A stretch of DNA of 64,000 nt from Candidatus Binatia bacterium. Its GTDB lineage: Bacteria; Desulfobacterota; Binatia; Bin18. This document shows positions 25,504 to 38,294 of the stretch, in pieces. Position 1 is the first letter of the stretch, and the number at the start of each line of letters is the position of its first letter. The stretch spans positions 1,120,001 to 1,184,000 of the forward strand of contig OY761159.2 in the NCBI GenBank assembly GCA_963664395.2. Direction: 5' to 3'. The notes below the pieces were generated by a model. That model was not told the DNA's origin, did no database searches, and saw only the letters and a list, made by a program, of their open reading frames with translations. The translations under genes were made by a program, and so were the position numbers.

Positions 25504-26571
25504 ATGATCGAACCGTATAATGCCGTTGGCTTGATTCCGACGTTTTGGGGTATCCGCAAGCGTGCGGATATGCAGAAAAATATCGACCATATCCGCAGTC
25601 TGACCAAAGCCGCTTTCTGGCTCTCCAATCTGGATATTCCGGTCCGCCTGCTCGCCATCCCGGAAGGCGCCTTACAGGGATTCAACGACGAAGTCCTGGA
25701 CGTCGATCACACTGAGTTTGCGCAGACCTGCGCGATTGATATCCCCGGTCCGGAGACCGACCAACTCGGCCAACTCGCGCGTGAGTACGGGGTCTTCATT
25801 ATGGCCCAGGCCAAGGCACGGCATGAAGACTGGCCCAAGCTGTTCTTCAATGTCGGCTTTATTCTTGATCCGGATGGTCAGCTTATTCTCAAACACTATA
25901 AGATATCCTCTTTGTTGCCGTGTGAGCGCTCGGTGTCTCCACACGATCTCTTTGATTGGTGGATTGAAAAATATGGCCGAACCTTGGATGCCTTTTGGCC
26001 GGTAGCCGACACGGAGATTGGCCGTCTCGGCATCATGATGGCCATGGAGGGCAACTACCCGGAGAACGGCCGCGGGCTGGCGATGAACGGCGCGGAAGTC
26101 GTCTACCGTGCCTCTTTGCCAGGTCCGTTCACCCAGAACGATGTCTTTGAAATCTCCAACCGTGCCCGGGCACTGGAAAACAATATGTATGTTGTTGCTC
26201 CCAATATTGGGGGCTATCACCTCTACCCGGACAGCGAGACGCCGATTGATGCCGGCAGCGGTCAGTCCATGGTCGTTGACTACAAGGGGACGATAGTTGG
26301 CAAGCAGCGCGACACCAACGGGTCAACCTATGTCAGGGGTGTGATCGACATCCAAGCCTTACGCCACCACCGGGCCAACGCCCAGGTCACGAACTGGCTG
26401 AAGGACGTGCGGGCAGAAATGGCGCAACTCATTTATGAAAAGCCAATCTACCCCAAGAATCGCTATATCGACAAAATCCCCGGAAACCACGCCCAGTACA
26501 AAGAGGAGGTCATCGACCAACAGATTGCCCTGATGCAAGCCCGCGACATTTGGAAAAAGCCGGCGAAGTGA
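25504..26571 (+). CDS. nitrilase-like carbon-nitrogen hydrolase (nucleophile Cys apparently absent)
   Basis: IPEG, KHYK, GRLGIMMAMEGNYPE..R.LAMNGAEV, RARALEN..YVV. Confidence 0.8.
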   Translation: MIEPYNAVGLIPTFWGIRKRADMQKNIDHIRSLTKAAFWLSNLDIPVRLLAIPEGALQGFNDEVLDVDHTEFAQTCAIDIPGPETDQLGQLAREYGVFIMAQAKARHEDWPKLFFNVGFILDPDGQLILKHYKISSLLPCERSVSPHDLFDWWIEKYGRTLDAFWPVADTEIGRLGIMMAMEGNYPENGRGLAMNGAEVVYRASLPGPFTQNDVFEISNRARALENNMYVVAPNIGGYHLYPDSETPIDAGSGQSMVVDYKGTIVGKQRDTNGSTYVRGVIDIQALRHHRANAQVTNWLKDVRAEMAQLIYEKPIYPKNRYIDKIPGNHAQYKEEVIDQQIALMQARDIWKKPAK

Positions 26572-26601
26572 GGGGATAGGAAGTAGGGCGCAGGATGAAC
26601 C

Positions 26602-26823
26602 ATGAAAGATTACCATATTAACGTCTTTTATAGCGAAGAAGACGCGGGCTATATTGCTGATATTCCTGATCTACCCCATTGCGCAGCTTTCGGTAAAAGC
26701 CCGGAAGAAGCCTTGCAAGAAGTGCTCAAAGCAAAAAAAGCGTGGCTAGAGGCCGCCCACGCAAATGCCAAGCCTATCCCAGAACCCCGGTATCGCCCGG
26801 TCATCTCTCAGACAGGCCAATAA
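26602..26823 (+). CDS. hicB: HicB family antitoxin (orphan)
   Basis: YHINVFYSEED.GYIADIPDLP.C.AFG.SPEEAL...PIPEP. Confidence 0.85.
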   Translation: MKDYHINVFYSEEDAGYIADIPDLPHCAAFGKSPEEALQEVLKAKKAWLEAAHANAKPIPEPRYRPVISQTGQ

Positions 26824-26826
26824 GTT

Positions 26827-26880
26827 CAGCAGATTGCCCTGATGCAAGCCCGCGATATCCAGAAGAAACCGGCGAAGTGA
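26827..26880 (+). pseudogene. second, diverged copy of the nitrilase gene 3' end
   Basis: encodes QQIALMQARDIQKKPAK* vs QQIALMQARDIWKKPAK* at 26518-26571. Confidence 0.88.
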
Positions 26881-27021
26881 TTGATCGGTTTTCTCCAACT
26901 AAGGACTCAATCTGATCCTTCATAACGGAACCGCATCATCTCGCACGGTCTCAAGAAAAGGGCTGTGGCGAGTTTCAAACCCTTGGGGCGAAATCGGGTA
27001 TAGGGAAATCTAATGATACAT

Positions 27022-28074
27022 CTAATAATGCGCAATAATCTCCCGCGCAAACTCGACAATGCTCTCCTCAACATAGCCCCACGGCGGAGAAATCACCATT
27101 TGGGTCAGACCGACGGCTTCTAATTCTTTGAGGCGCGTAATCACTTCCTCTCGGGTGCCGGTCACACTCATGGCTCGAATCACCTCCGGGGTAATGAACT
27201 CTTCTTCGCCCGGATGCAAAAACCGTGAGTGGGTCACATGAATGTCATCCCAGCGTTCGTCCAGATACGCTCGGTATCGCGGAGTGAGGAACGGCTCAAA
27301 ATAGGCGGGCGCGTTCTTGCCCTGCCGCACGACTTCATACGCATAGTGCAGCCCAACGGCAATACGTGGCCCGACTCGGCTGAGGACCCGAGGACTATTG
27401 AGCGTTTCGCCCGGACGCATTACGCATGCGACGCCAACGGTGACGACCGGATAATCTTTGTGTTGCCCCGATGCTTGCTGCCTGCCCTTGGCCGCTTTGT
27501 CTAATGTCGCCGTCAGTGCGTCGGGGGTAATCGTACTCACCGTAATCAACCCATCACCGAGTTCCCCAGCCAAGGCCAGCGCTTTGGGATAGGAAGCGGC
27601 GAGATAAATCGGGACAGGATCGTTGACGTTAATATATCCGCGCTCGCGGTCGAGGAAACGGATCTGACTGTGACGGCCGCGTTCATGGTATTCAACCGCT
27701 TCGCCGCGCAGCAGTTTTCGACACACATCGATAGTATGCCGGAATGTATCCAAGCGGACGGGCGGCATATTCATAGCGCGCCAGGCAGTGTGGCCGGTCC
27801 CCAGACCCAGGATGGTCCGGCCTGGCGCGAGTTGGTTCACCGTGGCGATCGAGTGGGCAATGACCGGGGCAATACGGGTGCCGGCAATCGCCACCGCTGT
27901 CCCAAGCTGGATGGTGCTCGTATGCTCAGCCGCCAGGGCCATACACGCATACACGTCCGAGGCCAGCATCTGGGTATCGACAAACCACGCGGTGGTGAAG
28001 CCCATTTGTTCGGCCAGCACGGCATGCTTCCAACTGTTTTGAATATGCGACTGAAAACTCACACCAAAGTTCAT
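27022..28074 (-). CDS. LLM class flavin/F420-dependent oxidoreductase
   Basis: AEQMGF..AWFVD, IQLGTAV, APGRTILGLGTG, PIYLAA..PKAL.LAGE.GDG. Confidence 0.9.
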   Translation of the reverse strand: MNFGVSFQSHIQNSWKHAVLAEQMGFTTAWFVDTQMLASDVYACMALAAEHTSTIQLGTAVAIAGTRIAPVIAHSIATVNQLAPGRTILGLGTGHTAWRAMNMPPVRLDTFRHTIDVCRKLLRGEAVEYHERGRHSQIRFLDRERGYINVNDPVPIYLAASYPKALALAGELGDGLITVSTITPDALTATLDKAAKGRQQASGQHKDYPVVTVGVACVMRPGETLNSPRVLSRVGPRIAVGLHYAYEVVRQGKNAPAYFEPFLTPRYRAYLDERWDDIHVTHSRFLHPGEEEFITPEVIRAMSVTGTREEVITRLKELEAVGLTQMVISPPWGYVEESIVEFAREIIAHY

Positions 28075-28083
28075 GGCAGGTCC

Positions 28084-28434
28084 TTACCCAATCTCGACGT
28101 CTTCGACAATAAACATTCGAGAGCTGGCAAAGTCCACAAATTTTGCCTCATCCGGGCGAATGATTTCGAGATAGCGCGGCTGGGTAAACGCCTTGCCAAT
28201 ATCCTCCACGCTGTCAAACCACAGCTCGGCGATTCCATCGAACGGGGCATCGTCTGAGGGTGGGAACCCCGGCACGGGAGTGCTGACCGTGTGGCCCTGG
28301 ACATATTTTCGGACGTACTGCCAGAACTCCGGCACACTTCTGACCAGCGGACCGTGATTGTTTTTCCAATAGTCCTGAAACTCAACCGTTGTCATCCCAG
28401 CCTTGCGGCGTGCACACCCAACAAATTTGACCAT
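28084..28434 (-). CDS. EthD domain protein
   Basis: RRKAGMT..EF..YW...HGPLV, FDGIAELWFDS, DEAKFVD. Confidence 0.9.
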   Translation of the reverse strand: MVKFVGCARRKAGMTTVEFQDYWKNNHGPLVRSVPEFWQYVRKYVQGHTVSTPVPGFPPSDDAPFDGIAELWFDSVEDIGKAFTQPRYLEIIRPDEAKFVDFASSRMFIVEDVEIG

Positions 28435-28531
28435 GCGTTACCCTCCTCCATAAAAAATCAGACAAAAATAATCGTTGGCATGGTCCGGTAAATCCTTGTA
28501 AGAGTCAAGCTGTGATCCCGAAGGAGGATGT

Positions 28532-29353
28532 ATGCCCTACGCGAACGATAGCGGAGTCAAGCTGTGGTACGACCTGAACGGAGTTGGCGAGCCGCTGGTT
28601 GTCACCGGCGGTTTCGGCCTGCTGCACGACCAGTTCGCCCATGTCCGTGAGCTGCTCACACCCCACCTTCAAGTGATCGATTGGAATTACCGGGGCGCTG
28701 GACGGTCGGACCGCTCGTGGCCCGGCGGTTATCCTTTTGATCGATGGGTCGATGACCTTGGGGTCATTCTGGATCAGGCCGGTCTCGATGCGGTTCATCT
28801 ATGGGGCACCTCGACCGGCGCACTCCTGAATGTCCGCTTTGCCGCCCGGCATCCCGAGCGTGTCAAAAGCCTTATCACCTATCCTGGGATTTCCTTTAGC
28901 CCCGAGAGCCGCCGCATGTTTCAGGTCTTTCAAGACGTAACCGAAACGTTCGGCTACGAGGCGCTGGGACGTCTGACCCAATGGATAGGCAGCGCCGAGC
29001 ATAACGTATTCGGCGACAGAGCCAATGAAATAGCTCTTTTTGAAATCGAGTCTTTCAAGCGTAATTTCTCCATTCCATCTTTGGCAAAGACGCTGGAAGT
29101 TTTTTCCCACTGTGACCTGTCTGCCGATGTCGCCAAGCTCACTATGCCGGTCCTGGTGTTAATGGGGAACTCTGGCCACCTGGGAGCGGCCACGCCGGGG
29201 CAAACCGCGGCAATCGAGGCTTTTACTACCCTGTGCCCACATGCCGAAGTGACACTCATTGAGAACGGGGGCGGGACCTATCACATGATTGAACAGCCCG
29301 AACAGACGGCTGCCATTGTCGTTGATTTTGTGAACAAACACACAGGAGCCTGA
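28532..29353 (+). CDS. alpha/beta fold hydrolase
   Basis: YRGAGRSD, WGTSTG, HPERVKSLI, EQPE; RBS AAGGAGG. Confidence 0.88.
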   Translation: MPYANDSGVKLWYDLNGVGEPLVVTGGFGLLHDQFAHVRELLTPHLQVIDWNYRGAGRSDRSWPGGYPFDRWVDDLGVILDQAGLDAVHLWGTSTGALLNVRFAARHPERVKSLITYPGISFSPESRRMFQVFQDVTETFGYEALGRLTQWIGSAEHNVFGDRANEIALFEIESFKRNFSIPSLAKTLEVFSHCDLSADVAKLTMPVLVLMGNSGHLGAATPGQTAAIEAFTTLCPHAEVTLIENGGGTYHMIEQPEQTAAIVVDFVNKHTGA

Positions 29354-29361
29354 GCGAGGCC
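29224..29361 (+). repeat. 138-bp perfect direct repeat, left copy (hydrolase 3' end + stop)
   Basis: identical to 36628-36765 base by base (offset 7404). Confidence 0.95.
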
Positions 29362-29407
29362 AAGAAGGAGGAAGGAGATTTATTATGTGTTGCGTTTGTG
29401 TCACATT

Positions 29408-29674
29408 ATGGACATGAATAAATCAGCCGTCGTACACGCGCGCATAGAGCCCCAAACAAAGAAGCAGGCTGAGGGCGTTCTCCAGCAGCTTGGACTCAGT
29501 CCCACGGAAGCGATTCGGCTCTTCTATCGCCAGATCTGTTTGCGCGGTGGCCTCCCGTTTCCAGTCCTTATTCCTAACAAATTGACGGCCAAGACGCTGA
29601 AGAAAAGTCAGCGGGGAGAGGACGTCGACACATTCGACTCACTGGAGGATATGCTTGAAAGCTGGGAGAAATGA
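29408..29674 (+). CDS. dinJ: RelB/DinJ family antitoxin
   Basis: KSAVVHARIEP..K..AE.VL..LGLSPTEAIRLFYRQI....GLPF..IPN..T. Confidence 0.9.
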   Translation: MDMNKSAVVHARIEPQTKKQAEGVLQQLGLSPTEAIRLFYRQICLRGGLPFPVLIPNKLTAKTLKKSQRGEDVDTFDSLEDMLESWEK

Positions 29675-29940
29675 AAAAGCTCTCCCAGACAAAGCAATTC
29701 GTGCGGGATATCAAACGAATGCGTCGCCGCGGGAAAGATATTGGCAAGCTCAAGGCCGTAGTGGTCCAGTTGGCCCAAGGGAGGGCTCTTGCTGCAAAAC
29801 ACCGCGCTCATGCACTGACAGGGGTGTGGAAGCATTACCGCGACTGCCACATAGAGCCTGATTGGATTTTGATCTATTCAATGGACAGGAACAGTCTTCG
29901 ACTTGAGCGTACAGGCTCACATAACGACCTTTTCGAATAA
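29671..29940 (+). CDS. yafQ: YafQ family mRNA interferase toxin
   Basis: F.RDIKR, HAL.G.W..YRDCHIEPDWILIY, LERTGSH.DLF; ATGA overlap with dinJ. Confidence 0.92.
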   Translation: MKKLSQTKQFVRDIKRMRRRGKDIGKLKAVVVQLAQGRALAAKHRAHALTGVWKHYRDCHIEPDWILIYSMDRNSLRLERTGSHNDLFE

Positions 29941-30014
29941 CGGGCGCATCCAACGAATTTGACCATGCGTTCCCCCTCCATCGAGAGTCGGACAAAAATA
30001 ATCGTTGGCATGGT
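29941..30014 (-). pseudogene. diverged second copy of the ethD 5' end and its upstream region
   Basis: minus strand encodes MVKFVGCA(R) as at 28434; block GACAAAAATAATCGTTGGCATGGT identical to 28461-28484. Confidence 0.88.
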
Positions 30015-30094
30015 GAGGACGAGGGAACACGTTCACGACTCGACCGCCGGAACCTATCAGAAATCGTTCCAGGCTGATACGTACCCGAAAAATA

Positions 30095-30320
30095 GGTAGT
30101 ATCTCACTTTGAAATTGCTTCTCCTCGCCACTGATTGCCTGCCCATCTTTTTCGACGCCCGCGTCATTTTTTTTCATTTCCTACCAATTTTGGTAGGGAC
30201 AAGGGCGGCAAATTATATATATAATTCCTTCCTACCAGTGAAGCCAAAACACTGCGGCAGGCGGAGTCAAGGTCCGCCATACGAGAGCGAAATCCAAAGG
30301 ATTCAAACTGAGACACTACC
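30095..30320. mobile_element. 226-bp MITE with 19-bp terminal inverted repeats and 8-bp target duplication (IS1595/IS1-like ends)
   Basis: left GGTAGTATCTCACTTTGAA, right TTCAAACTGAGACACTACC (17/19 complementary); GAAAAATA at 30087-30094 and 30321-30328. Confidence 0.85.
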
Positions 30321-30366
30321 GAAAAATAAGCGTCTTCGTATCGACACTTGGTAATAGGTCTCGTCT

Positions 30367-31689
30367 ATGAAATTGAATATGAAAAGAAGAAAGATTGCTA
30401 TTACCGGCATAGCCTCCGGCGGCAAGACCGTATTCCTGACGTCACTGTTATGGCAGTTGAAGGAATTCAAAAACTCGAAGTTCTATAAAGAAGTAAAGGA
30501 AGTGACAATCAGCAATTTTAGCAACGTTTCGTCGCACGGCGACAAGGAATTTCGGTTCTATAAACATCGGGACGCCTTGGCGAAGGGACGCAAGTGGCCA
30601 GAGAAAACTAATGATATTCATCGGTTTCATTGCGAGTTCGAACGTGGTGATCGGAAGTTGTTTAAGAAGCAGCAACTGAACTTCCTCGACTTTCCCGGCG
30701 AGCGCATTGCCGATGCTGCGATTGCTGCCTATACCGATTTTGATGATTGGTCCGACCACATTTTCGACTGCTTCAGCGATCGCGCAGATTACAGCGAAGC
30801 GACCTGTCAATTCCTGCGGGAGGTCGAGTCCACGGACTTGAGTGCGGATGAAGCTACGCGAGCCTATCGACGGGCGTTGGCACGTTTCGTTTTAGATTAC
30901 AAGCCGCTGATTTCACCATCCGTTTTTCTTTTGGATGAGGAGGGAGATAAAGCTACATATAAATCTTTGGAAGACTTGGCGGAGGAACGAATATGTGGGT
31001 TGGATGAACAGAGTCAGTTTGCGCCATTACCGGAATCGGTGCGCAAGACCAATAGGAAGTTAGCCAAGGAGATGCGTCGACACTACCAGCGTTACCGTAA
31101 AAAGTTGGTCATCCCGCTGTTTCGCGAAGTGGCGAATTCCGACAGCTTGATCGTACTGGTGGACATACCCTCGCTGCTAGTCGGGGGTGTAGAGCGCTAC
31201 AACGACAACCGGCAGATCGTGCTGGACTTGGCTGATGTTGTGGCTGGTACTGCCATCGGCGGGCGGCTTAAGCGGATGTTCGGGTTAAATTCACTGCAGC
31301 GAGTTGCCTTCGTTGCGGCCAAAGCCGACTTGGTCGCGCCGAACGACTTGAAGAATGGTCGCTTGTGTTCCCTGCTTCGAGAAATGACCGAACAGGCGGA
31401 GGATCGGTTACCAGGGAAAGTGGACATCGACTGGTTTGTTTGCAGCGCCTGCCACTCGACTAGGCCCAGCAATGCGGAGAATACGTTGGTTGGCGCACCG
31501 CTGTCGGATAATCCCGAGCGGCTGGAAAAGGAGTTTACGGTTTCGCCGTTGCCGGAGGCTTGGCCGGGCGATTGGGGGGTTCAGGATTACCTGTTCCCCG
31601 AGGTCCATCCTAAGACGGCGCGGAATCTCCAACAACCTCCAGAACACAGAGGACTCGACAAAGTGTTCGACTTCGTCGCGCTTCGTTGA
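30367..31689 (+). CDS. ycjX: YcjX family GTP-binding protein
   Basis: IAITGIASGGKTVFLTSL, WPE.T, LDFPGE, IVLVD, FVAAKAD, RGLDKVFDF. Confidence 0.85.
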   Translation: MKLNMKRRKIAITGIASGGKTVFLTSLLWQLKEFKNSKFYKEVKEVTISNFSNVSSHGDKEFRFYKHRDALAKGRKWPEKTNDIHRFHCEFERGDRKLFKKQQLNFLDFPGERIADAAIAAYTDFDDWSDHIFDCFSDRADYSEATCQFLREVESTDLSADEATRAYRRALARFVLDYKPLISPSVFLLDEEGDKATYKSLEDLAEERICGLDEQSQFAPLPESVRKTNRKLAKEMRRHYQRYRKKLVIPLFREVANSDSLIVLVDIPSLLVGGVERYNDNRQIVLDLADVVAGTAIGGRLKRMFGLNSLQRVAFVAAKADLVAPNDLKNGRLCSLLREMTEQAEDRLPGKVDIDWFVCSACHSTRPSNAENTLVGAPLSDNPERLEKEFTVSPLPEAWPGDWGVQDYLFPEVHPKTARNLQQPPEHRGLDKVFDFVALR

Positions 31690-31699
31690 AGGAAGGGCC

Positions 31700-33004
31700 A
31701 TGGATACCAAACTTGACAACAAGCCGGAAAACCCGCCACGCGAGGGCGATGATGGGCTTGGCATTCCTCAATCTCGCGTAGAAGGTGCACGGATACTCAC
31801 CGACGCGGAGGGCGAGGGCCACCCGCGCCAGCGTGCTGGAGAACTCCGGCGTGAGTCCGAGAAGAAGCCAAAAGAAGACGTCAATTCAACGATAGCTGCG
31901 CCTGACAACGGGCCGGGAAAGTCTCTACGCGAGGGCGATGATGGGCTTGGCGTTCCTCAATCTCGCGTAGAAGGTGCACGGACGCTCACCCTTGAAGAGA
32001 TCAAAGAATACGAACACCGGCAAGACGAAGAACTTCGGCACGAGTTCGAGAGGAAGCTGGAAGAGCTTGGAGCTGCTGACACGTCGTTCAACATACCAGC
32101 GGGCGTTCTGCGCGTTATTACCTGGATTGGTTGGGGCGTGGCATCAGTGTTGGGGCTGTTCCTTGTGGCTCAGGGGGCGGCGTTGGTTGACGACATCCGA
32201 GTGTTATCGACACCGTTCAACTGGATCGCAGGTGTAAGCGCCTCGGCTTTCGCTACAATTCTGACAGTGTTGATCCTGAAGTTGGGGATAATGCTGGCTC
32301 GTCTGCACCGTAGTCCTGCGATCCCCCTGCGGTCATTGGCTGCATTGCAGCAGCGCGAACGATGGCAGCAGTTGGCCAAGCAGCATATCGAACGCGCGAA
32401 AGGCGAACTGCAAGACTATCTGAAAGGATATGAACTTGGCGGTGATGCGCGAAAACGACTGCGAGTCTTCGGAGTCAGCGAAGACGAATACGATAAGCTC
32501 GTAGAGGCGCATGAATTCCTGCTCGGAGATGAGCCGCTGTCCCCGGACGAATGGCTTAAAGCGTTCTCCCTCAGGTTTCAGTCAATTCTGGATGCAGCAG
32601 CAGAACGCCGCGCCAAGAGCTATGCCATGAAAGTCGGGGTCGCCACCGCTGCTACACCGGTGGCGGTGATTGATCAGCTCATCGTGCTGTACTCGTGCGT
32701 AGCCTTGACCAAGGAACTGATGGCCATTTACGGGCTGCGTCCTGCATTCGGTCAGACGGCGACACTCTTGGCGCGTTCCATCGTGGCCACGTACCTGAGC
32801 GGTCTGGCGCAAGAACTGTCAGAGGGTGGTGTGGATATGGTTGTGGACGGGACCGCCCAAGAACTGCTAGGTCCATCCATGCTAGGGCTTACTGCCAAGA
32901 TAGGTGCCGCCAAGATGGCTGAAGGGATATTTAATGGCGTCCTCATCCGGCGATTGGGGAAACGCACCATTTCCCTGCTTCAGCCGGTGCGACCGGAAGG
33001 ATGA
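31700..33004 (+). CDS. ycjF: YcjF/DUF697 family membrane protein with duplicated N-terminal segment
   Basis: two TM helices, ATAATP.A.ID, IYGLRP, EG.FNG.L..RLG; directly follows ycjX. Confidence 0.8.
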   Translation: MDTKLDNKPENPPREGDDGLGIPQSRVEGARILTDAEGEGHPRQRAGELRRESEKKPKEDVNSTIAAPDNGPGKSLREGDDGLGVPQSRVEGARTLTLEEIKEYEHRQDEELRHEFERKLEELGAADTSFNIPAGVLRVITWIGWGVASVLGLFLVAQGAALVDDIRVLSTPFNWIAGVSASAFATILTVLILKLGIMLARLHRSPAIPLRSLAALQQRERWQQLAKQHIERAKGELQDYLKGYELGGDARKRLRVFGVSEDEYDKLVEAHEFLLGDEPLSPDEWLKAFSLRFQSILDAAAERRAKSYAMKVGVATAATPVAVIDQLIVLYSCVALTKELMAIYGLRPAFGQTATLLARSIVATYLSGLAQELSEGGVDMVVDGTAQELLGPSMLGLTAKIGAAKMAEGIFNGVLIRRLGKRTISLLQPVRPEG

Positions 33005-33078
33005 TACGGAGGCTTTCCCTGCCTCGCCCATCTCTTTTTGAAGAGTCCGGCACTATCACGACTATGCCGCCTTTTTTC

Positions 33079-34995
33079 CTAATGATTCGTTCGCAGGTAA
33101 CGGACAATTTCCATCATGACCTTGCAGTCAACTTCGTTGTAGCGAGCAATCTCGTTCATCAGCGGCAACTCGGCCATCGACACGCCTTTCTGCCGAGCCT
33201 CTTCGTCACAGCGCCACGCACCGACCATCGCCCCCAAGCCGTCAACGGGACTATCGGCCCAACTCGTTTCTATGAAACCGTGGGCGTGCATGGCGTTAGC
33301 AACCGCTTTCAAACCGAAACCCAACGCACCCCGTACTGTTACGGGCTCCTCACGCATCACTTTCTGTAGGAAATCGTACCAGTCCAACCAGCCCAACTCG
33401 GGCCAGTCAGATCGTTTCCGGTGCCTGACTTTGGCAGAATTGTAGGCGTTCTCCAGCGCAGTTCGTTCAGCGGCTGACCAGTGGAAAATGCACGGATTAC
33501 GGTTTTGCGGGTCTAGTTGGTCGCGGACTACGGACATGTACTCAACCCATTCCTGAATGATGCGGAATTCTTCCTCTTCAGACAGCTCATTGGTGACCAG
33601 CGACTTAAACTGCCACTCCCCTTTGTCTACATGGCCGCAGCCAATCATAAAGATGAGCGGTTGCCCTCCCTTCTCCGGCAGTGTGGAAAAGTCATCGTTC
33701 AGGTCGCTGCAAAACTCGAAGTCTACGTAGAACTCAACACCGGGTGTAGGATACCACTGTTCCCGCTCGGTCTCGACCTGTAAAGGCAGAACCAACGAGC
33801 CGTCGTATTCAGGTTGGTTTACGACCAGAATCTGGTCCAGTATGCGGCTCGGCTTTTCTCCACCAACCCCCACTTTTATCGGTGTCACCCGCGGGTCATC
33901 CCAACGGTAGATGCCGTCTTCATGTGCTTGTTTGCGCTTTCCAACTCCGACTTGCCACAGTTGGGTCAGCTCTCTCAACTCACCCGCCAGCCACTTCTTG
34001 ACGCCTACCCACTGCTCGGCAGGTTCATCGTCCTCGGTACCAGGCTCCAGTTCAACGGGACCGTCATCCAACATCATGCCACCGTCGTCTGCATTGCCCA
34101 TATTAGGATAAAGTTCAGGAACCGATGGATTCGGGAGCAGTTGCCAGTCCAGACCCTCGGTCCGTACTCGCCGGACCCAACGAAGGGCATCCTCCACAGC
34201 GTCGGCAATGAGAACTCCATTGGTGACCGTACCATTCTGCGGAATCGGTCCCAACCGCTCCAGTGCGTTCGTTCCTCTGTCTCTTCGCTGTTGCCAACCG
34301 CGCCCCAACAGATACGATTCGGGCGGCTCGAAGCCCTGAAGGCGTCCCAGCATTCGGTTATAGATATATAACTGTGCCTTGTACGCTGGCCCGCTGCCAC
34401 TGTTGCTAACCTGGGAGCCGCTGGCATTCAGGTGCAGCGTCGTAAATTTGGTGTCTACCACGCGGTAGTGCCAACCATCGGCTCCCAGGTCAGGCGCGAA
34501 CACCGCCGCTTCATTCTCCGAAAAAGACTCGGCGGACAGAGTATGAAGCACATCACTCCGTATCAAGAAGTCCGGCGAACCATAGTTCATATTTTGGGCA
34601 TCCCATAACACGGCTTGGTAAATGATGGGCACGCCCTGCTGCATCGCTGCAAAGGTTTCCTCCGCCTTGTCCAGCCTGCTTATCTCCCGATAGTCTTGGG
34701 CTATCGTGGTAACGTCATACCACTGCCTGAATAGACGGAGTATGCCGGCCTCGAATTCTCTCCCCCGTTCAAAGATAAACTCCAGGAAATCTAAGTCCTT
34801 CTCGTAGCCAGGCCATGCTGTCTTTGGGATGTAGTCACAACTTTTTCCGTACAGTTGCAGCCAGTCTATGAGTGGGTCGCCCAACATCCAGTTCCGGGTG
34901 CGACCCGCACTCACCCACTGCTGCCAATCGTCGTGGGAAACGGGAAGCGGAACTTCGGAACCGTCGTCTCGGTGTGTTAGCGCGTTGATACCCAT
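33079..34995 (-). CDS. TM0106-like RecB-family nuclease with C-terminal RNase H-like domain
   Basis: GSPDFLIRSD..VVDTK..QLYIY (PD-(D/E)xK); HhH-like WQVGVG; FYVDFE, FHWS.AE, FGLK.VA, YNEVDC. Confidence 0.78.
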   Translation of the reverse strand: MGINALTHRDDGSEVPLPVSHDDWQQWVSAGRTRNWMLGDPLIDWLQLYGKSCDYIPKTAWPGYEKDLDFLEFIFERGREFEAGILRLFRQWYDVTTIAQDYREISRLDKAEETFAAMQQGVPIIYQAVLWDAQNMNYGSPDFLIRSDVLHTLSAESFSENEAAVFAPDLGADGWHYRVVDTKFTTLHLNASGSQVSNSGSGPAYKAQLYIYNRMLGRLQGFEPPESYLLGRGWQQRRDRGTNALERLGPIPQNGTVTNGVLIADAVEDALRWVRRVRTEGLDWQLLPNPSVPELYPNMGNADDGGMMLDDGPVELEPGTEDDEPAEQWVGVKKWLAGELRELTQLWQVGVGKRKQAHEDGIYRWDDPRVTPIKVGVGGEKPSRILDQILVVNQPEYDGSLVLPLQVETEREQWYPTPGVEFYVDFEFCSDLNDDFSTLPEKGGQPLIFMIGCGHVDKGEWQFKSLVTNELSEEEEFRIIQEWVEYMSVVRDQLDPQNRNPCIFHWSAAERTALENAYNSAKVRHRKRSDWPELGWLDWYDFLQKVMREEPVTVRGALGFGLKAVANAMHAHGFIETSWADSPVDGLGAMVGAWRCDEEARQKGVSMAELPLMNEIARYNEVDCKVMMEIVRYLRTNH

Positions 34996-35421
34996 ATGAT
35001 GCCCTCAAAGTCTTGTCGGTTACTGGACTGGTGACTTCCATATGTAAAAAGAACCCTTAATCTGAGGGAGGGGACATATGTCCAGCCTTTGGCCTTATTC
35101 AGAAGCTGACAGTATACAGCCTTTCTTTTGAATTGATTACGTAGGTGAGTGAAACAGAAGACGGAAACATCAGCAACCCGCCCCCAGACGGATAGGGCGG
35201 CAGAGTATTATTGCCAGTTATTCGGGAGGTCAGATGATACAATGTTATTCTAATTCCCTTGTTATCTGTCTGCTTGTTATCTGTTTAGGCGTGGGAGCAT
35301 GTTCGGAACCTCAGGATGTCGCTGGTTCATGTAAAGGTGATTTAGAGGAAACGACCAACGCGAATACACACCTCTTGGCTAGGGCGTGTTCAGCCGCTAT
35401 CTGCCTATGCTTGAGGTATCT

Positions 35422-36456
35422 CTAACGCTGTCTTCCGACCTTCAAACGATCCGGGGTTTGACTTGTAATGAGGCTCACACCTCCTCCGTGTTCCTTGTGT
35501 GCAACCCTAACCCCATAATCGCGGACGCCCTTTATCCATACATGACAGAATCTTTTTGAGAGATTGAACAAGGCAGCATGAATCTCTTCGTACGGCGAAT
35601 TGAGGAATGGCTTACGTAAATCCTCTAGGAATTGGTCTGGCTTACCGGAACGATTTGATACGTTGCAACCGTCACAGATAAGCTTTTCTAACGCACTGAC
35701 CAGACAGCTCGTCAATGGCGAGAGATTTTCACGGAAGCCCGCGAGGTTGATATCCGCTCCGTTATCGCCTGGGGAGATTCCCATATCGGCTAGAGCTTCC
35801 CAAAATTTCCGAGTGGCATCCTCGCCAAAGAATTCATCAAGCGGCCGGTCTCGTCGTGTGCTTGCCTGTAGATGCGTGGGAGACGATATTGTGTTACGCA
35901 CGTAATGCTGATGCTGCTTCCATAGTTCGTTGCCATCCCAGGAGATGTCAGCCACGTCAAGCCAACTCACGTGTCGCGCATGCGCGCAGGGGTAGCATTC
36001 ACAGAAATCCTCAAACTCTTTGACGGCCTTGAGTATAGCGGCTGTATCGGCATCTTCTGCACGGTCCCGATTGAACGGTGTCAGATACCCTATGGCTACG
36101 GATTGAGCAGCATCCTCTACCGTGAGGCTATCATAATATTTCTTTAACTGACCGTATTCGACCGAGTCATCATCTGTCTTGACTTCGATCCCCAAGACCC
36201 TGTGGCTACCTTTGTCGTGTATGCAGACGTCAATCCGCCCAGTCTTTATGTCCTTCTCAGATAAGATTTCAGGCCGATCTGGAGTATTCCATTTGAGCGG
36301 TGCAGCCAGCTTCCAGACCGTATCGAACAACGAGCGGTTTCCCGTTAAGCTTTCTATCAACGCATCCGCGAGAAACCGCGAATGGAATGGCTCCGTACGA
36401 CTTGTGACCTTCCCAATGGTCTTGAATATATTAACGCTTCGGTTGTATGTACTCAT
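35422..36456 (-). CDS. PD-(D/E)xK superfamily nuclease
   Basis: EPFHSRFLA, SEK...GRIDVCI....LGIEVK....GQLKKY, YLTP, HVSW. Confidence 0.8.
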   Translation of the reverse strand: MSTYNRSVNIFKTIGKVTSRTEPFHSRFLADALIESLTGNRSLFDTVWKLAAPLKWNTPDRPEILSEKDIKTGRIDVCIHDKGSHRVLGIEVKTDDDSVEYGQLKKYYDSLTVEDAAQSVAIGYLTPFNRDRAEDADTAAILKAVKEFEDFCECYPCAHARHVSWLDVADISWDGNELWKQHQHYVRNTISSPTHLQASTRRDRPLDEFFGEDATRKFWEALADMGISPGDNGADINLAGFRENLSPLTSCLVSALEKLICDGCNVSNRSGKPDQFLEDLRKPFLNSPYEEIHAALFNLSKRFCHVWIKGVRDYGVRVAHKEHGGGVSLITSQTPDRLKVGRQR

Positions 36457-36627
36457 TAGTAGCTACCTCTTATTTCAGACTATTTCATTTTTCAGCCAGG
36501 TCTTTTTGTTATGACCGACTATCATTGTGGAATACTCCACACGGACGAAACAAGCTCCACAACAGGGTAGCGATCTGACATTACAAGGACTCTCCCCATG
36601 GTGAGGGCGCAGCACGGTGAATCTTTA

Positions 36628-36765
36628 TACTACCCTGTGCCCACATGCCGAAGTGACACTCATTGAGAACGGGGGCGGGACCTATCACATGATTGAACAG
36701 CCCGAACAGACGGCTGCCATTGTCGTTGATTTTGTGAACAAACACACAGGAGCCTGAGCGAGGCC
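36628..36765 (+). repeat. 138-bp perfect direct repeat, right copy (orphan hydrolase 3' end)
   Basis: identical to 29224-29361. Confidence 0.95.
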
Positions 36766-36854
36766 GTGCAAAACCTTGCAAAACATTGACAGAACCTTGA
36801 CGAAACGCTGAGAGCTTTGCGATAAAGGTTTATCAATACCAAAGGAGGGGTCGT

Positions 36855-38294
36855 ATGCTCGATTGTGTCATCAAAGGTGGTCAGGTCGTTACTCCCCAAG
36901 CAGTTGGTGAAATGGATGTCGGCATTCAGGGCGAAAAGATCGTCGCCGTAGGCTGGTCAGGGACGCTGTCGGAACAGGCCGCTCGTGTGATTGACGCCAG
37001 CGGCAAAATTGTCATCCCGGGTGGCATCGAGCCGCACGCGCATATCGGCATTCCCGTGCCGAGTGAGTGGTCAGGTCAGCCGGATATCATGACCCAGCCG
37101 CCCCAGGACGCCAGCCGGGCCGCCGCGTTCGGGGGGGTCACAACCATCGTCGATTTTGCTGGGGATCTGAGTTTTGCAGAGGTGGAGGACGCAACACCCA
37201 AATCCATCATGAGTGTCGTGGAGGAACGCCGCAGTGTGTTTCGCACCCATGCCTACACCGACTATACCTTTCACTACATTCTGGCGGGTGAGGTCGCGCC
37301 GGAGACGATCAGCGAGATTGGCGAGGCCATACAAGAAGGCGTAGCCAGCTTTAAGATCTTTACCACCTTCCATCCCATCCGGGTTCCATACGGACATCTG
37401 TGGACCATATTTGCCGAGGTGGCCAAGCACGGCGGCATTATGGCGGTACACGCCGAAGAAGATGAAGTCGTGCGCTATATGACCGCAAAGCTCAAGCGTG
37501 AGGGCCGCGACCAGGGGTATAACCTCCACCTCGTTCACAACAACATCTCTGAAGATCTGGCCTTCCGTCATATCATCCGTCTGGCCCAGCATACTGAGGC
37601 GGGTATTTACTTTGTGCATACGACCGCCAAAGAAGGCGTGGCCGCCATCGCCGAGGCACGCGCCGCCGGTCAGCCAGTGTATGGCGAGGCGCTCCACAAT
37701 TATCTCCAATTCACCTGTGAGGATTACAAAAAGCCTGGCGGGACAGCGATTCACACCTATCCGGCCATTAAGTTCGCGGATGACAGAGACGCGTTGATCG
37801 CCGGCTTGATGGACGGCCGTTTGGCGACCACGGCCACAGATGAATACACGACCCATAAAGGACCCAAGCTGTGGGGCGATACGATCGAGACCGTCTGCGG
37901 TGGGCATAACGGCATTGAGACCCGTATGCCGGTCGCCTTCACCAAGTTTGTGGCAGAGCGCAACATGTCGCTCCAGCGCTTTGTTGACATTACCTCGGCC
38001 AACGCCGCCAAACTCCTCGGGCTTTATCCCCGGAAGGGAGCGATTCAGCCGGGGAGCGATGCCGATCTCGTTTTGATTGATCCCGACATGAAAAAAACGC
38101 TCACCATGGACGATCTGCACGCCGACGCTGACTACAGCATCTGGGAGGGCTTTGCCTGCCAGGGCTATCCGGTGCTGACCATGCTGCGCGGTAAGGTGAT
38201 TGTCGATCAGGGACAACTGGTCGGGAGTTCGACTGACGGCCAATGGCTCAAACGGCGGGTGTCGGGCGATGTCATCTCCCGGCCAGTGGTGTAG
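36855..38294 (+). CDS. dihydropyrimidinase/D-hydantoinase family amidohydrolase
   Basis: PGGIEPHAH, AAAFGGVTTIVDF, GVASFKIF, VHAE, GLYPRKG.IQPGSDADLV. Confidence 0.88.
   Translation: MLDCVIKGGQVVTPQAVGEMDVGIQGEKIVAVGWSGTLSEQAARVIDASGKIVIPGGIEPHAHIGIPVPSEWSGQPDIMTQPPQDASRAAAFGGVTTIVDFAGDLSFAEVEDATPKSIMSVVEERRSVFRTHAYTDYTFHYILAGEVAPETISEIGEAIQEGVASFKIFTTFHPIRVPYGHLWTIFAEVAKHGGIMAVHAEEDEVVRYMTAKLKREGRDQGYNLHLVHNNISEDLAFRHIIRLAQHTEAGIYFVHTTAKEGVAAIAEARAAGQPVYGEALHNYLQFTCEDYKKPGGTAIHTYPAIKFADDRDALIAGLMDGRLATTATDEYTTHKGPKLWGDTIETVCGGHNGIETRMPVAFTKFVAERNMSLQRFVDITSANAAKLLGLYPRKGAIQPGSDADLVLIDPDMKKTLTMDDLHADADYSIWEGFACQGYPVLTMLRGKVIVDQGQLVGSSTDGQWLKRRVSGDVISRPVV

Follow-up and report, generated by a model that had tools for sequence, protein, structure and literature searches.

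At the rhs loci of Jackson et al. (2009; PMC2935791) and in the orphan arrays of contact-dependent inhibition (CDI) and type VI secretion system (T6SS) genes (PMC5361080), as these sources describe them, fragments dissociated from the end of a gene lie behind its intact form, each of them marking an earlier arrival of a new end with neighboring genes. No integrase is involved. Homologous recombination through the conserved part of the gene has been proposed, for rhs via a circle that carries the core with a new tip and recombines with the chromosomal core, existing tips being displaced, not replaced, and for T6SS effector-immunity genes via homology-facilitated illegitimate recombination (HFIR), which Kirchberger et al. 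(2017; PMC5361080) invoked with reference to the rhs case. Here we describe scars of this type at ordinary genes in a genome bin of Candidatus Binatia bacterium (G000, 5.04 Mb). In a 64,000-nt stretch of its 4.8-Mb contig C1 (hereafter the window), the order intact gene, cargo, truncated direct copy of the gene end occurs three times within 10 kb. An initial annotation, made from the letters of the window, had placed three repeat pairs here, and a repeat finder and self-BLAST of the genome both recovered them at the same places.

The reading that we favor, at a probability of roughly 0.45, is that these are displacement scars, left when DNA from a related lineage, bearing a gene end and cargo, recombined with the resident gene through short homology, most probably in a single crossover of a circular or circularized molecule. 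The incoming DNA would have comprised a stretch of the host gene's end together with neighboring cargo genes. After the exchange the host gene would have stayed whole, now ending (or starting) with the incoming version and with the cargo next to it, and the resident end would have been moved outward, to persist as a silent relic. If the two copies recombined, the cargo would loop out as a circle with one copy, leaving a clean empty site, and the circle would be able to enter a naive relative. Deletions (loss of hicA, trimming of the spacer up to the relic), insertion of a miniature inverted-repeat transposable element (MITE), and gene conversion between the copies may have changed the scars later. 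The data show the anatomy of the scars, their recurrence across the genome, cargo free of integrases, and copies that are different alleles; the circular intermediate is inferred, as are the direction in which each event ran and the way the DNA entered.

Three duplicated gene ends within 10 kb

The bin is 95.93% complete, with 5.37% contamination. We searched 30 other genomes, 18 of which belong to the same genus at ~90% DNA identity, and aligned the focal locus with the loci of 12 relatives; families were assigned with Pfam and defense systems with PADLOC. Pfam supported the gene names CN_hydrolase, EthD, alpha/beta hydrolase, RelB/DinJ, and YafQ, with HicB below the cut-off. Coordinates are collected in Table 1.

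In case (a), an orphan hicB-like antitoxin gene lies between two versions of a nitrilase 3′ end, identical at 47 of 54 nt (87%). Read directly, five of the seven differences are synonymous and the other two yield a single W-to-Q change. The relic begins 3 nt past the TAA of the hicB-like open reading frame (ORF) and is in the same frame, with only the TAA and one codon between them. It is closer to the functional copies of two relatives, G006 and G018 (51/54 identical to each), than to the gene copy of its own genome. The nitrilase itself has orthologs of 88–92% identity in 11 relatives' loci, and in G006 and G007 both hicA and hicB sit between the nitrilase end and the relic, with hicA directly upstream of hicB (HicA_toxin, 33.5 bits, for the G006 ORF); G008 has a matching piece. 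There the relic reaches 9–25 nt beyond the stop codon and is followed by a gene with an HSDR_N domain, which comes directly after the nitrilase in seven other relatives, and G001 has neither cargo after its nitrilase. Because sister species carry hicA-hicB with the relic, capture (a) is old. Comparison of 26572–26601 with the corresponding loci of G006 (L031) and G007 (L040) places the missing hicA of G000 at a 4-nt AGGA microhomology, and the HSDR_N gene is missing from this locus as well. G000 has hicB without the upstream HicA toxin of a HicAB pair, having lost hicA and retained only the orphan antitoxin. A synonymous GAC marker is confined to copies linked to hicAB: it stands in the relic of G006 and G007 and in the gene copy of G000, whose GAC..ATT states are otherwise seen only in those two relics, while the G000 relic resembles the common allele. 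Crossovers at differing points in the repeat would produce such a swap between relic and gene copy; vertical descent alone would not.

In case (b), an alpha/beta hydrolase gene and the toxin-antitoxin (TA) pair dinJ-yafQ, whose adjacent ORFs have the features of a DinJ-YafQ module and overlap by 4 nt, lie between two copies of the ethD 5′ end with its upstream DNA (~76 nt, 84% identical, one gap). The four differences within ethD codons 1–9 are all at third positions and all synonymous, and the relic begins 0 nt past the yafQ stop codon. The initial annotation's description of (a) and (b), in which relics start 0–3 nt past the stop of a TA gene and the copies differ almost only at synonymous positions, was accurate on both counts. 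The ethD relic is nearest the copy of G004 (67/74, vs. 63 to its own gene copy). Among the 12 relatives' loci, dinJ-yafQ follows the hydrolase in complete form in five and truncated in two more; in G011, G016, and G018 the hydrolase runs straight into downstream DNA. A degraded ethD/intergenic relic, including the hydrolase's own ribosome-binding region, lies behind yafQ in G002, G004, G005, G006, G007, and G012, so the yafQ|relic joint is older than these species. By these alignments, cases (a) and (b) are old and common to other species of the genus, not recent captures in G000.

The copies of the hydrolase 3′ end in case (c) had been called identical, which holds for a perfect repeat of 138 nt but not for the full 141 nt (29221–29361 and 36625–36765), where 140 positions match and only the third base differs. 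The 7.3 kb between them hold dinJ-yafQ, the ethD relic, a MITE, and an island with a YcjX-like gene, a DUF697 gene, and genes for proteins of 638 and 344 aa. The left part of this block, dinJ-yafQ and the ethD relic, is native to the same locus in sister species, and its right end is the hydrolase-end relic in the downstream context of genomes without dinJ-yafQ; the island had no match at this locus in any other genome searched. Because the block is partly native to the locus in sister species, its donor would have been a homologous chromosomal locus, not a phage or an integrative and conjugative element, and the joining in G000 of two arrangements of one locus points to recombination between homologous chromosomal loci.

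Table 1. Positions of the duplicated gene ends, their host and cargo genes, and adjoining features (numbering of the window).
Feature	Position	Strand	Basis
Intact nitrilase-family gene (CN_hydrolase), host of (a)	25504..26571	+	Pfam PF00795, 97.7 bits
Nitrilase 3′ end, gene-linked copy, 54 nt	26518..26571	+	self-comparison
Orphan hicB-like antitoxin gene, 73 aa, cargo of (a)	26602..26823	+	Pfam HicB_lk_antitox, 25.3 bits (under cut-off 27)
Nitrilase 3′ end relic, stop codon kept	26827..26880	+	self-comparison
Intact ethD gene, host of (b)	28084..28434	-	Pfam PF07110, 89.6 bits
ethD codons 1–9 and ~50 nt upstream, gene-linked copy	28409..28484	.	self-comparison
Intact alpha/beta hydrolase gene, cargo in (b), host in (c)	28532..29353	+	Pfam Abhydrolase_1, 59.7 bits
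Hydrolase 3′ end and 8 nt beyond stop, gene-linked copy, perfect 138-nt repeat	29224..29361	+	self-comparison
dinJ (RelB family) and yafQ TA pair	29387..29940	+	Pfam RelB, 51.7 bits; YafQ_toxin, 109 bits
ethD 5′ end and upstream DNA, relic, abutting yafQ stop	29941..30014	.	self-comparison
MITE, ~228 nt, 12-nt terminal inverted repeats, 8–9 nt target duplication	30095..30324	.	repeat comparison
YcjX-like (DUF463) and DUF697 island genes (start of second uncertain)	30367..33004	+	Pfam, 142.8 and 60.1 bits
Island genes for proteins of 638 and 344 aa, no secure family	33079..36456	-	weak RNase_H_2, 18 bits; 344-aa weak PDC-S26, E 1.6e-7
Hydrolase 3′ end relic, then downstream DNA as in relatives without dinJ-yafQ	36628..36765	+	self-comparison, relatives, unitigs
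Amidohydrolase (hydantoinase-like) gene, conserved right flank	36855..38294	+	Pfam Amidohydro_1

Displaced gene ends and their cargo across the genome

The arrangement recurs well beyond the window, as the initial annotation had supposed. In a BLASTN comparison of the genome with itself (word size 11), direct high-scoring segment pairs outnumbered inverted ones 247 to 3 where the copies lay 0–1 kb apart, 155 to 17 at 1–5 kb, 58 to 12 at 5–10 kb, and 53 to 31 at 10–20 kb, vs. 3766 direct and 3934 inverted at more than 100 kb. Short repeats (≤400 nt, ≥80% identity) 60–20000 nt apart numbered 171 direct vs. 25 inverted, and those more than 20 kb apart 1099 vs. 1117; the nearby direct-repeat pattern exceeds chance. 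Pairs that set a gene-end copy against a copy in no called gene numbered 37 direct and 0 inverted (not all independent, one being counted twice via a small contig that repeats a region of C1), and those with one copy internal to a gene and the other in no gene 32 direct and three inverted. Gene ends accordingly make up 37 of the 69 gene-versus-relic pairs, vs. 13% for length-matched random gene-overlapping fragments (2277 against 15208). In 25 of these 37 pairs the relic is positioned outward from the intact gene, 16 at 3′ ends and nine at 5′ ends. In the 3′-end cases the duplicated stretch stops 0–15 nt beyond the host stop codon. The repeats are 35–361 nt long, differ at sites scattered over their length, and have no inverted ends. 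A rule that cargo always ends exactly at the relic was rejected in favor of a tendency, given the distances from the last cargo stop to the relic in the 12 co-directional cases (2, 3, 3, 9, 17, 30, 46, 73, 91, 95, 113, and 391 nt).

The cargo includes TA and anti-phage genes. We scanned 143 ORFs of 20 further loci, corresponding to 21 of the 37 pairs, with Pfam and PADLOC; the three pairs of the window were scanned separately. A PIN and Phd pair is enclosed at the end of a short ORF and again at that of a UvrD-like helicase, a PIN protein alone at a zinc dehydrogenase, and a DUF2283 and DUF4258 pair at a luciferase-like oxidoreductase. Larger cargo includes Cas9 with a CRISPR array (host end, Nramp transporter), a complete type I-F CRISPR-Cas system flanked by a 44-nt repeat (LptE), a type IIG restriction-modification enzyme (PADLOC E 1e-250) in front of a MaoC dehydratase gene, and a split MmeI-like type IIG enzyme at a CMD-family gene, with a second scar nested at its own end. 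A block with a type II methyltransferase sits between two Phd-antitoxin-like fragments (68 and 77 aa), and an HTH protein with an OLD/GajA/AriA-like ATPase belongs to pair 9, where the body of an SDR gene lies between the copies, which is not displacement geometry. Some cargo is metabolic (cupin and glyoxalase; an FMN-binding protein). Overall, cargo ranges from as little as 255 nt up to 11 kb, at 25 different target genes.

Some of these loci have further features of their own. The Cas9 gene of L015 (G000:C1:2953001-2960000) adjoins a repeat array, with matches at ~330-nt offsets in relatives, and neither cas1 nor cas2 was found in its 3.9 kb of cargo; in G034, too, Cas9 adjoins the Nramp gene, and in G011 it lies ~8 kb from it. 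In L018 (G000:C1:4086001-4092500) the MmeI-like enzyme is split into ORFs of 288 and 635 aa, and the relic of its own 3′ end abuts the relic of the host CMD gene end, giving two nested displacement scars. The helicase-Phd-PIN locus occurs twice in G001 (C1:80416-82418 and 5134379-5136381), near both ends of its single contig, which may be leftover overlap of a circular assembly.

Neither the 143 ORFs of the 20 other loci nor the ORFs of the window region matched an integrase or transposase family in Pfam or PADLOC. The genome as a whole has five tyrosine-recombinase matches, one partial resolvase, and six DDE_Tnp_1 matches, all outside the window, and no rve match, and none of the site-specific recombinase matches lies between the copies of a pair. 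The window has no tRNA gene and no Rfam match at gathering thresholds. The earlier statement that integrase, transposase, and tRNA target are all absent agrees with these profile matches and the tRNA check. Transposons or insertion sequences would not account for duplications of such variable length without inverted ends, and the MITE is the only transposon-like item here. Nor does the locus resemble an integron cassette array, as the window holds no tyrosine recombinase and the repeats are host gene ends, not attC-like sites, although no formal attC model was run.

The closest integrase-mediated counterpart is prophage e14 in the icd gene of Escherichia coli, which likewise has a duplicated gene end, an incoming replacement end, and a pseudo-gene fragment at the far side (PMC6379469). 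The scars could then be decayed integrative elements that supplied a surrogate gene end, the integrase having since been deleted or acting in trans. Their anatomy is indeed that of e14, where the prophage supplies the 3′ codons and a 163-bp pseudo-icd duplicate remains (PMC6379469), and a foreign-looking gene copy with a resident-looking relic, the perfect repeat in (c), and the 44-nt repeat at the type I-F block would all fit. We nevertheless regard this origin as quite unlikely. e14 is a phage with its own integrase, as described in that source, whereas no recombinase gene was found within the elements, either in the window region or in the 20 scanned loci, and the genome's few recombinase matches stand against 25 different targets. 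The small size of some cargo, the spread of differences along repeats of 35–361 nt, and the partly native content of block (c), which is sister-lineage chromosomal DNA, argue the same way.

Allelic state of the copies and route of capture

If the relics were displaced by incoming versions, the two copies should be different alleles, and several comparisons support this. Coding differences in 30 pairs fall at codon positions 1/2/3 in numbers of 69/48/145 (145 of 262 at third positions; chi-square p 1e-13), a bias that by rough estimate exceeds that of a neutral relic beside a constrained gene and stays below that of two constrained copies. For polarization, nine segments (pairs 47, 48, 97, 105, 108, 1a, 1b, 16, and 14) were compared with the functional copies of 11–23 relatives each. 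Among 121 differing columns, 83 have both states among the relatives, 27 only the state of the gene (relic private), 10 only that of the relic (gene copy private), and one neither. The relic base therefore occurs in relatives' functional genes in 93 of 121 columns, vs. a mean of 33.8 and a maximum of 49 under simulated neutral, transition-biased decay, where 0 of 2000 runs reached 93. In seven of the nine segments, the relic shares more positions with the functional copy of another species than with the gene copy of its own genome, e.g., 104 vs. 96 of 111 positions in pair 108 and 64 vs. 56 of 68 in pair 105. At the Cas9 locus, the relic and its flank match one haplotype of the genus (TGA stop and its downstream sequence), and the second haplotype is matched by the gene copy together with ≥11 nt of downstream DNA. 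At the MaoC locus, the relic lies in the ancestral upstream context with common states, and the functional 5′ end carries private ones. On balance, the gene-linked copy and the relic are orthologous alleles, as the initial annotation had proposed against decayed duplicates.

These results bear directly on an origin by duplication of the recipient's own gene end in place, through a staggered break or a tandem duplication that trapped foreign DNA, followed by divergence. Such an origin would account for the 138 identical bases in (c); the whole hydrolase locus can be derived from one tandem duplication from the ethD start to the hydrolase end, with dinJ-yafQ at the joint and different deletions thereafter; local decay with gene conversion would suit the look of pair 1a and of the helicase relics; and the age of cases (a) and (b) leaves time for divergence in place. 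Set against this are the excess of relic bases over simulated decay, the nearest-neighbor result in the nine segments, the flanks or states of different haplotypes in the Cas9 and MaoC copies, and the third-position bias, and we consider duplication in place decidedly improbable.

Copies from different strains could also have been brought together by assembly. Public sequencing runs from several studies contain the stretch, and unitigs were obtained from X1, X6, X8, and X10 (four different studies). In X6, X8, and X10, unitigs bridge the hydrolase end, dinJ-yafQ, the ethD relic, and beyond (29332–30176; 0 differences in X6), and extend from the island 33 nt into the hydrolase relic. Depth in X6 is equal for flanks and island (5–6), and the unitig of the 138-nt repeat stands at 11.2, ~2×, as predicted for two copies per genome, a result that speaks against a chimeric contig. 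In runs X8 and X10, depth is 50–100 for the backbone and only ~4 for dinJ-yafQ and the island; a more abundant close strain (1–2% different) is thus without the whole block, and there the hydrolase end meets downstream DNA. This clean empty arrangement of (c), that of the dominant strain in both runs, is compatible with loop-out. A unitig joint from 29223 to 37349, which skips 8125, was rejected as a reading of the empty site, one side being only 22 letters long. A fusion of co-assembled strains into a chimeric contig, or chance similarity, might draw on this second strain, on the contamination of the bin, and on small contigs that resemble alternative haplotypes. However, the joints of (a) and (b) recur in independent assemblies of other species, those of (c) are bridged by unitigs from three further studies with X6 depths that fit two copies, and the asymmetry between direct and inverted repeats is 171 to 25. 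Chimeric assembly is therefore very unlikely, and we give an artifact almost no weight. The small contigs C11 and C14 of G000 duplicate C1:4463087-4463893 and C1:1287154-1287379, flanks included, at ≥94%; they are probably alternative haplotypes of a co-occurring strain and the source of the 5.37% contamination.

As to mechanism, the initial annotation had named HFIR, which as described joins an insertion to a deletion about as large, usually with 3–10 bp of microhomology (PMC3240628). The textbook form does not fit, as the scar is a duplication and HFIR products carry a deletion of recipient DNA (PMC3240628); a better fit is therefore homologous recombination with a circular intermediate (PMC2935791), or HFIR that bridges two chromosome copies. 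Loss of recipient DNA at the anchor was not seen: the gene end is duplicated in each of (a), (b), and (c), as it is in the 25 outward pairs. In the E. coli plasmid assay of Amarir-Bouhram et al. (2011), 56 of 60 clones carried a duplication of the homologous segment (109–950 bp) from single crossover of a recircularized molecule, and four were HFIR products (PMC3240628). This Campbell-type event shares with the present scars the direct duplication of the homologous segment on both flanks of the insert; natural defense cargo and homology of 35–150 nt lie outside that study as described. A paper on Haloquadratum (PMC3119063) reports deletion-coupled insertions and short-repeat deletions rather than gene-end duplicates.

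HFIR across two chromosome copies, in which linear transforming DNA enters through a single homologous crossover within the host gene and a single illegitimate joint, still shares much with what is seen here: integrase-free capture, a one-sided homology anchor, and hosts that encode DNA-uptake genes, as far as HFIR is described in PMC3240628 and PMC5361080. It would explain the copies being different alleles, has been proposed for T6SS effector-immunity displacement (PMC5361080), and agrees with inner joints of little or no homology (~4–5 nt at island|hydrolase relic, and none evident at hicB|relic and yafQ|relic, old joints that deletions may have reshaped). ComEC, DprA, and type IV pilus genes are present in the genome, and the pilD and minor pilin genes that had been noted at 60.6–64 kb of the window correspond to a prepilin peptidase and a GspH-like pilin at 60.6–61.9 kb. 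However, ComEC and DprA likewise occur in 10 and 11 of 14 control genomes, and the uptake set, prepilin peptidase and minor pilin included, is not diagnostic of entry by natural transformation. No match for the end-joining protein Ku was found in the genome at its 95.93% completeness. HFIR couples insertion with deletion and its products lose ~1 kb of recipient DNA on average, with no duplication (PMC3240628), whereas here the anchor is duplicated and the host gene loses nothing. To keep the old end, the illegitimate joint would have to lie upstream of the exchange, which calls for a second chromosome copy, as in transformation merodiploids; Johnston et al. (2013) describe transforming DNA that bridges sister chromatids and creates tandem duplications, which would let linear DNA yield the same scar (PMC3784515). 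We consider HFIR of this kind unlikely, and displacement by single crossover of a circular molecule the better account.

Several points weigh against displacement by incoming alleles. Neither a circular form nor a donor genome was observed, unitigs being the only read-level data examined, and the model leaves unexplained how the cargo first came to lie beside the host gene in the donor. The gene calls behind the pair classes came from a crude in-house caller that misses some foreign genes, and in the remaining 12 of the 37 pairs the copies stand on either side of the gene body; these, among them paralog arrays and a 378-aa gene present in multiple copies, are a different phenomenon. Under the strictest null, with changes only at columns variable among relatives, the 83 columns observed are a modest excess over a mean of 69.3 (13 of 2000 runs reach 83). 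In segment 1a relic-private changes dominate (12 of 18, and 12 of the 27 overall), the pattern expected of decay in place. At the helicase locus, each relic in G000, G006, and G037 resembles the gene copy of its own genome, which implies gene conversion or repeated, independent events and blurs the allele inference. Finally, cargo in (a), (b), and pair 97 has diverged between species about as much as the flanking genes, and nothing therefore points to recent transfer there.

The MITE occurs in 10 copies with differing flanks in G000 and in more in relatives, and in metagenome unitigs both its borders are loose ends and its depth is very high; a transposase to match it was not identified. The dispersed repeat of 230 nt on the island's left edge was rejected as an island boundary, as it is this MITE, of an ordinary kind, which has a target duplication of its own and no relation to the gene-end copies. 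The YcjX-like, DUF697, and 638-aa genes received no system name from PADLOC. The N-terminal region of the DUF697 protein (31714–32064) contains two tandem copies of ~162 nt at a spacing of 189 nt, and in the X8 and X10 strains the gene is 193 nt shorter, 31803 joining 31997 with four other letters between. The stretch 36766–36800, downstream from the hydrolase relic, holds repeats of a short motif of the TGCAAAACCT type, with one extra 10-nt unit in the abundant X8/X10 strain. The amidohydrolase is 89–91% identical in relatives, directly past the hydrolase locus.

Relation to known displacement systems and significance

The scar type and the proposed mechanism are already known from rhs, CDI, and T6SS loci, and an integrase-mediated form from prophages in icd, as the sources cited above describe them. 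Like rhs-type displacement, the loci here combine an intact gene with direct truncated copies of its end that have different neighbors, and, except in segment 1a, the copies trace to distinct pre-existing alleles (93/121 vs. 33.8; Cas9 haplotypes). The hosts described for rhs and T6SS are polymorphic toxins, whereas here genes for ordinary enzymes and housekeeping functions fill that role (nitrilase, hydrolase, EthD, Nramp, LptE, UvrD-like helicase, and others). An rhs gene gains a different toxic tip; the end gained here encodes the same protein end in another allelic form, and the cargo consists of TA and anti-phage systems. Long arrays in those systems also contrast with mostly a single relic per locus here, with one nested pair (146 and 147), and both 5′ and 3′ ends are hit. 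What sets the present case apart is the involvement of ordinary host genes at both ends, TA and anti-phage cargo of up to 11 kb, and ~25 scars in one recombinase-poor genome. The limited library consulted on HFIR with duplication, TA genes with gene-end duplication, and integrase-free islands described no genome-wide route of this kind for defense genes.

A broader idea, which we hold to be rather unlikely, is that gene-end repeats act as a general recombinase-free vehicle: bracketed cargo would loop out through homologous recombination as a one-copy circle and re-enter a naive relative at the same gene, and this cycle, in place of integrases or transposons, would be the main way in which CRISPR-Cas, restriction, and TA genes spread and accumulate in the genus. 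The relics may in that case be kept as the attachment site of the cassette or as a source of signals for neighboring genes.

How defense islands and chromosomal TA genes move without a visible integrase or transposase is a long-standing puzzle. The ~25 scars of one simple kind found here, some with whole CRISPR-Cas or restriction systems, point to homologous recombination via a few dozen bases of gene end. If this were general, island finders based on integrases or tRNA targets would overlook such capture, and the relics would offer a dated record of resident vs. arriving allele.

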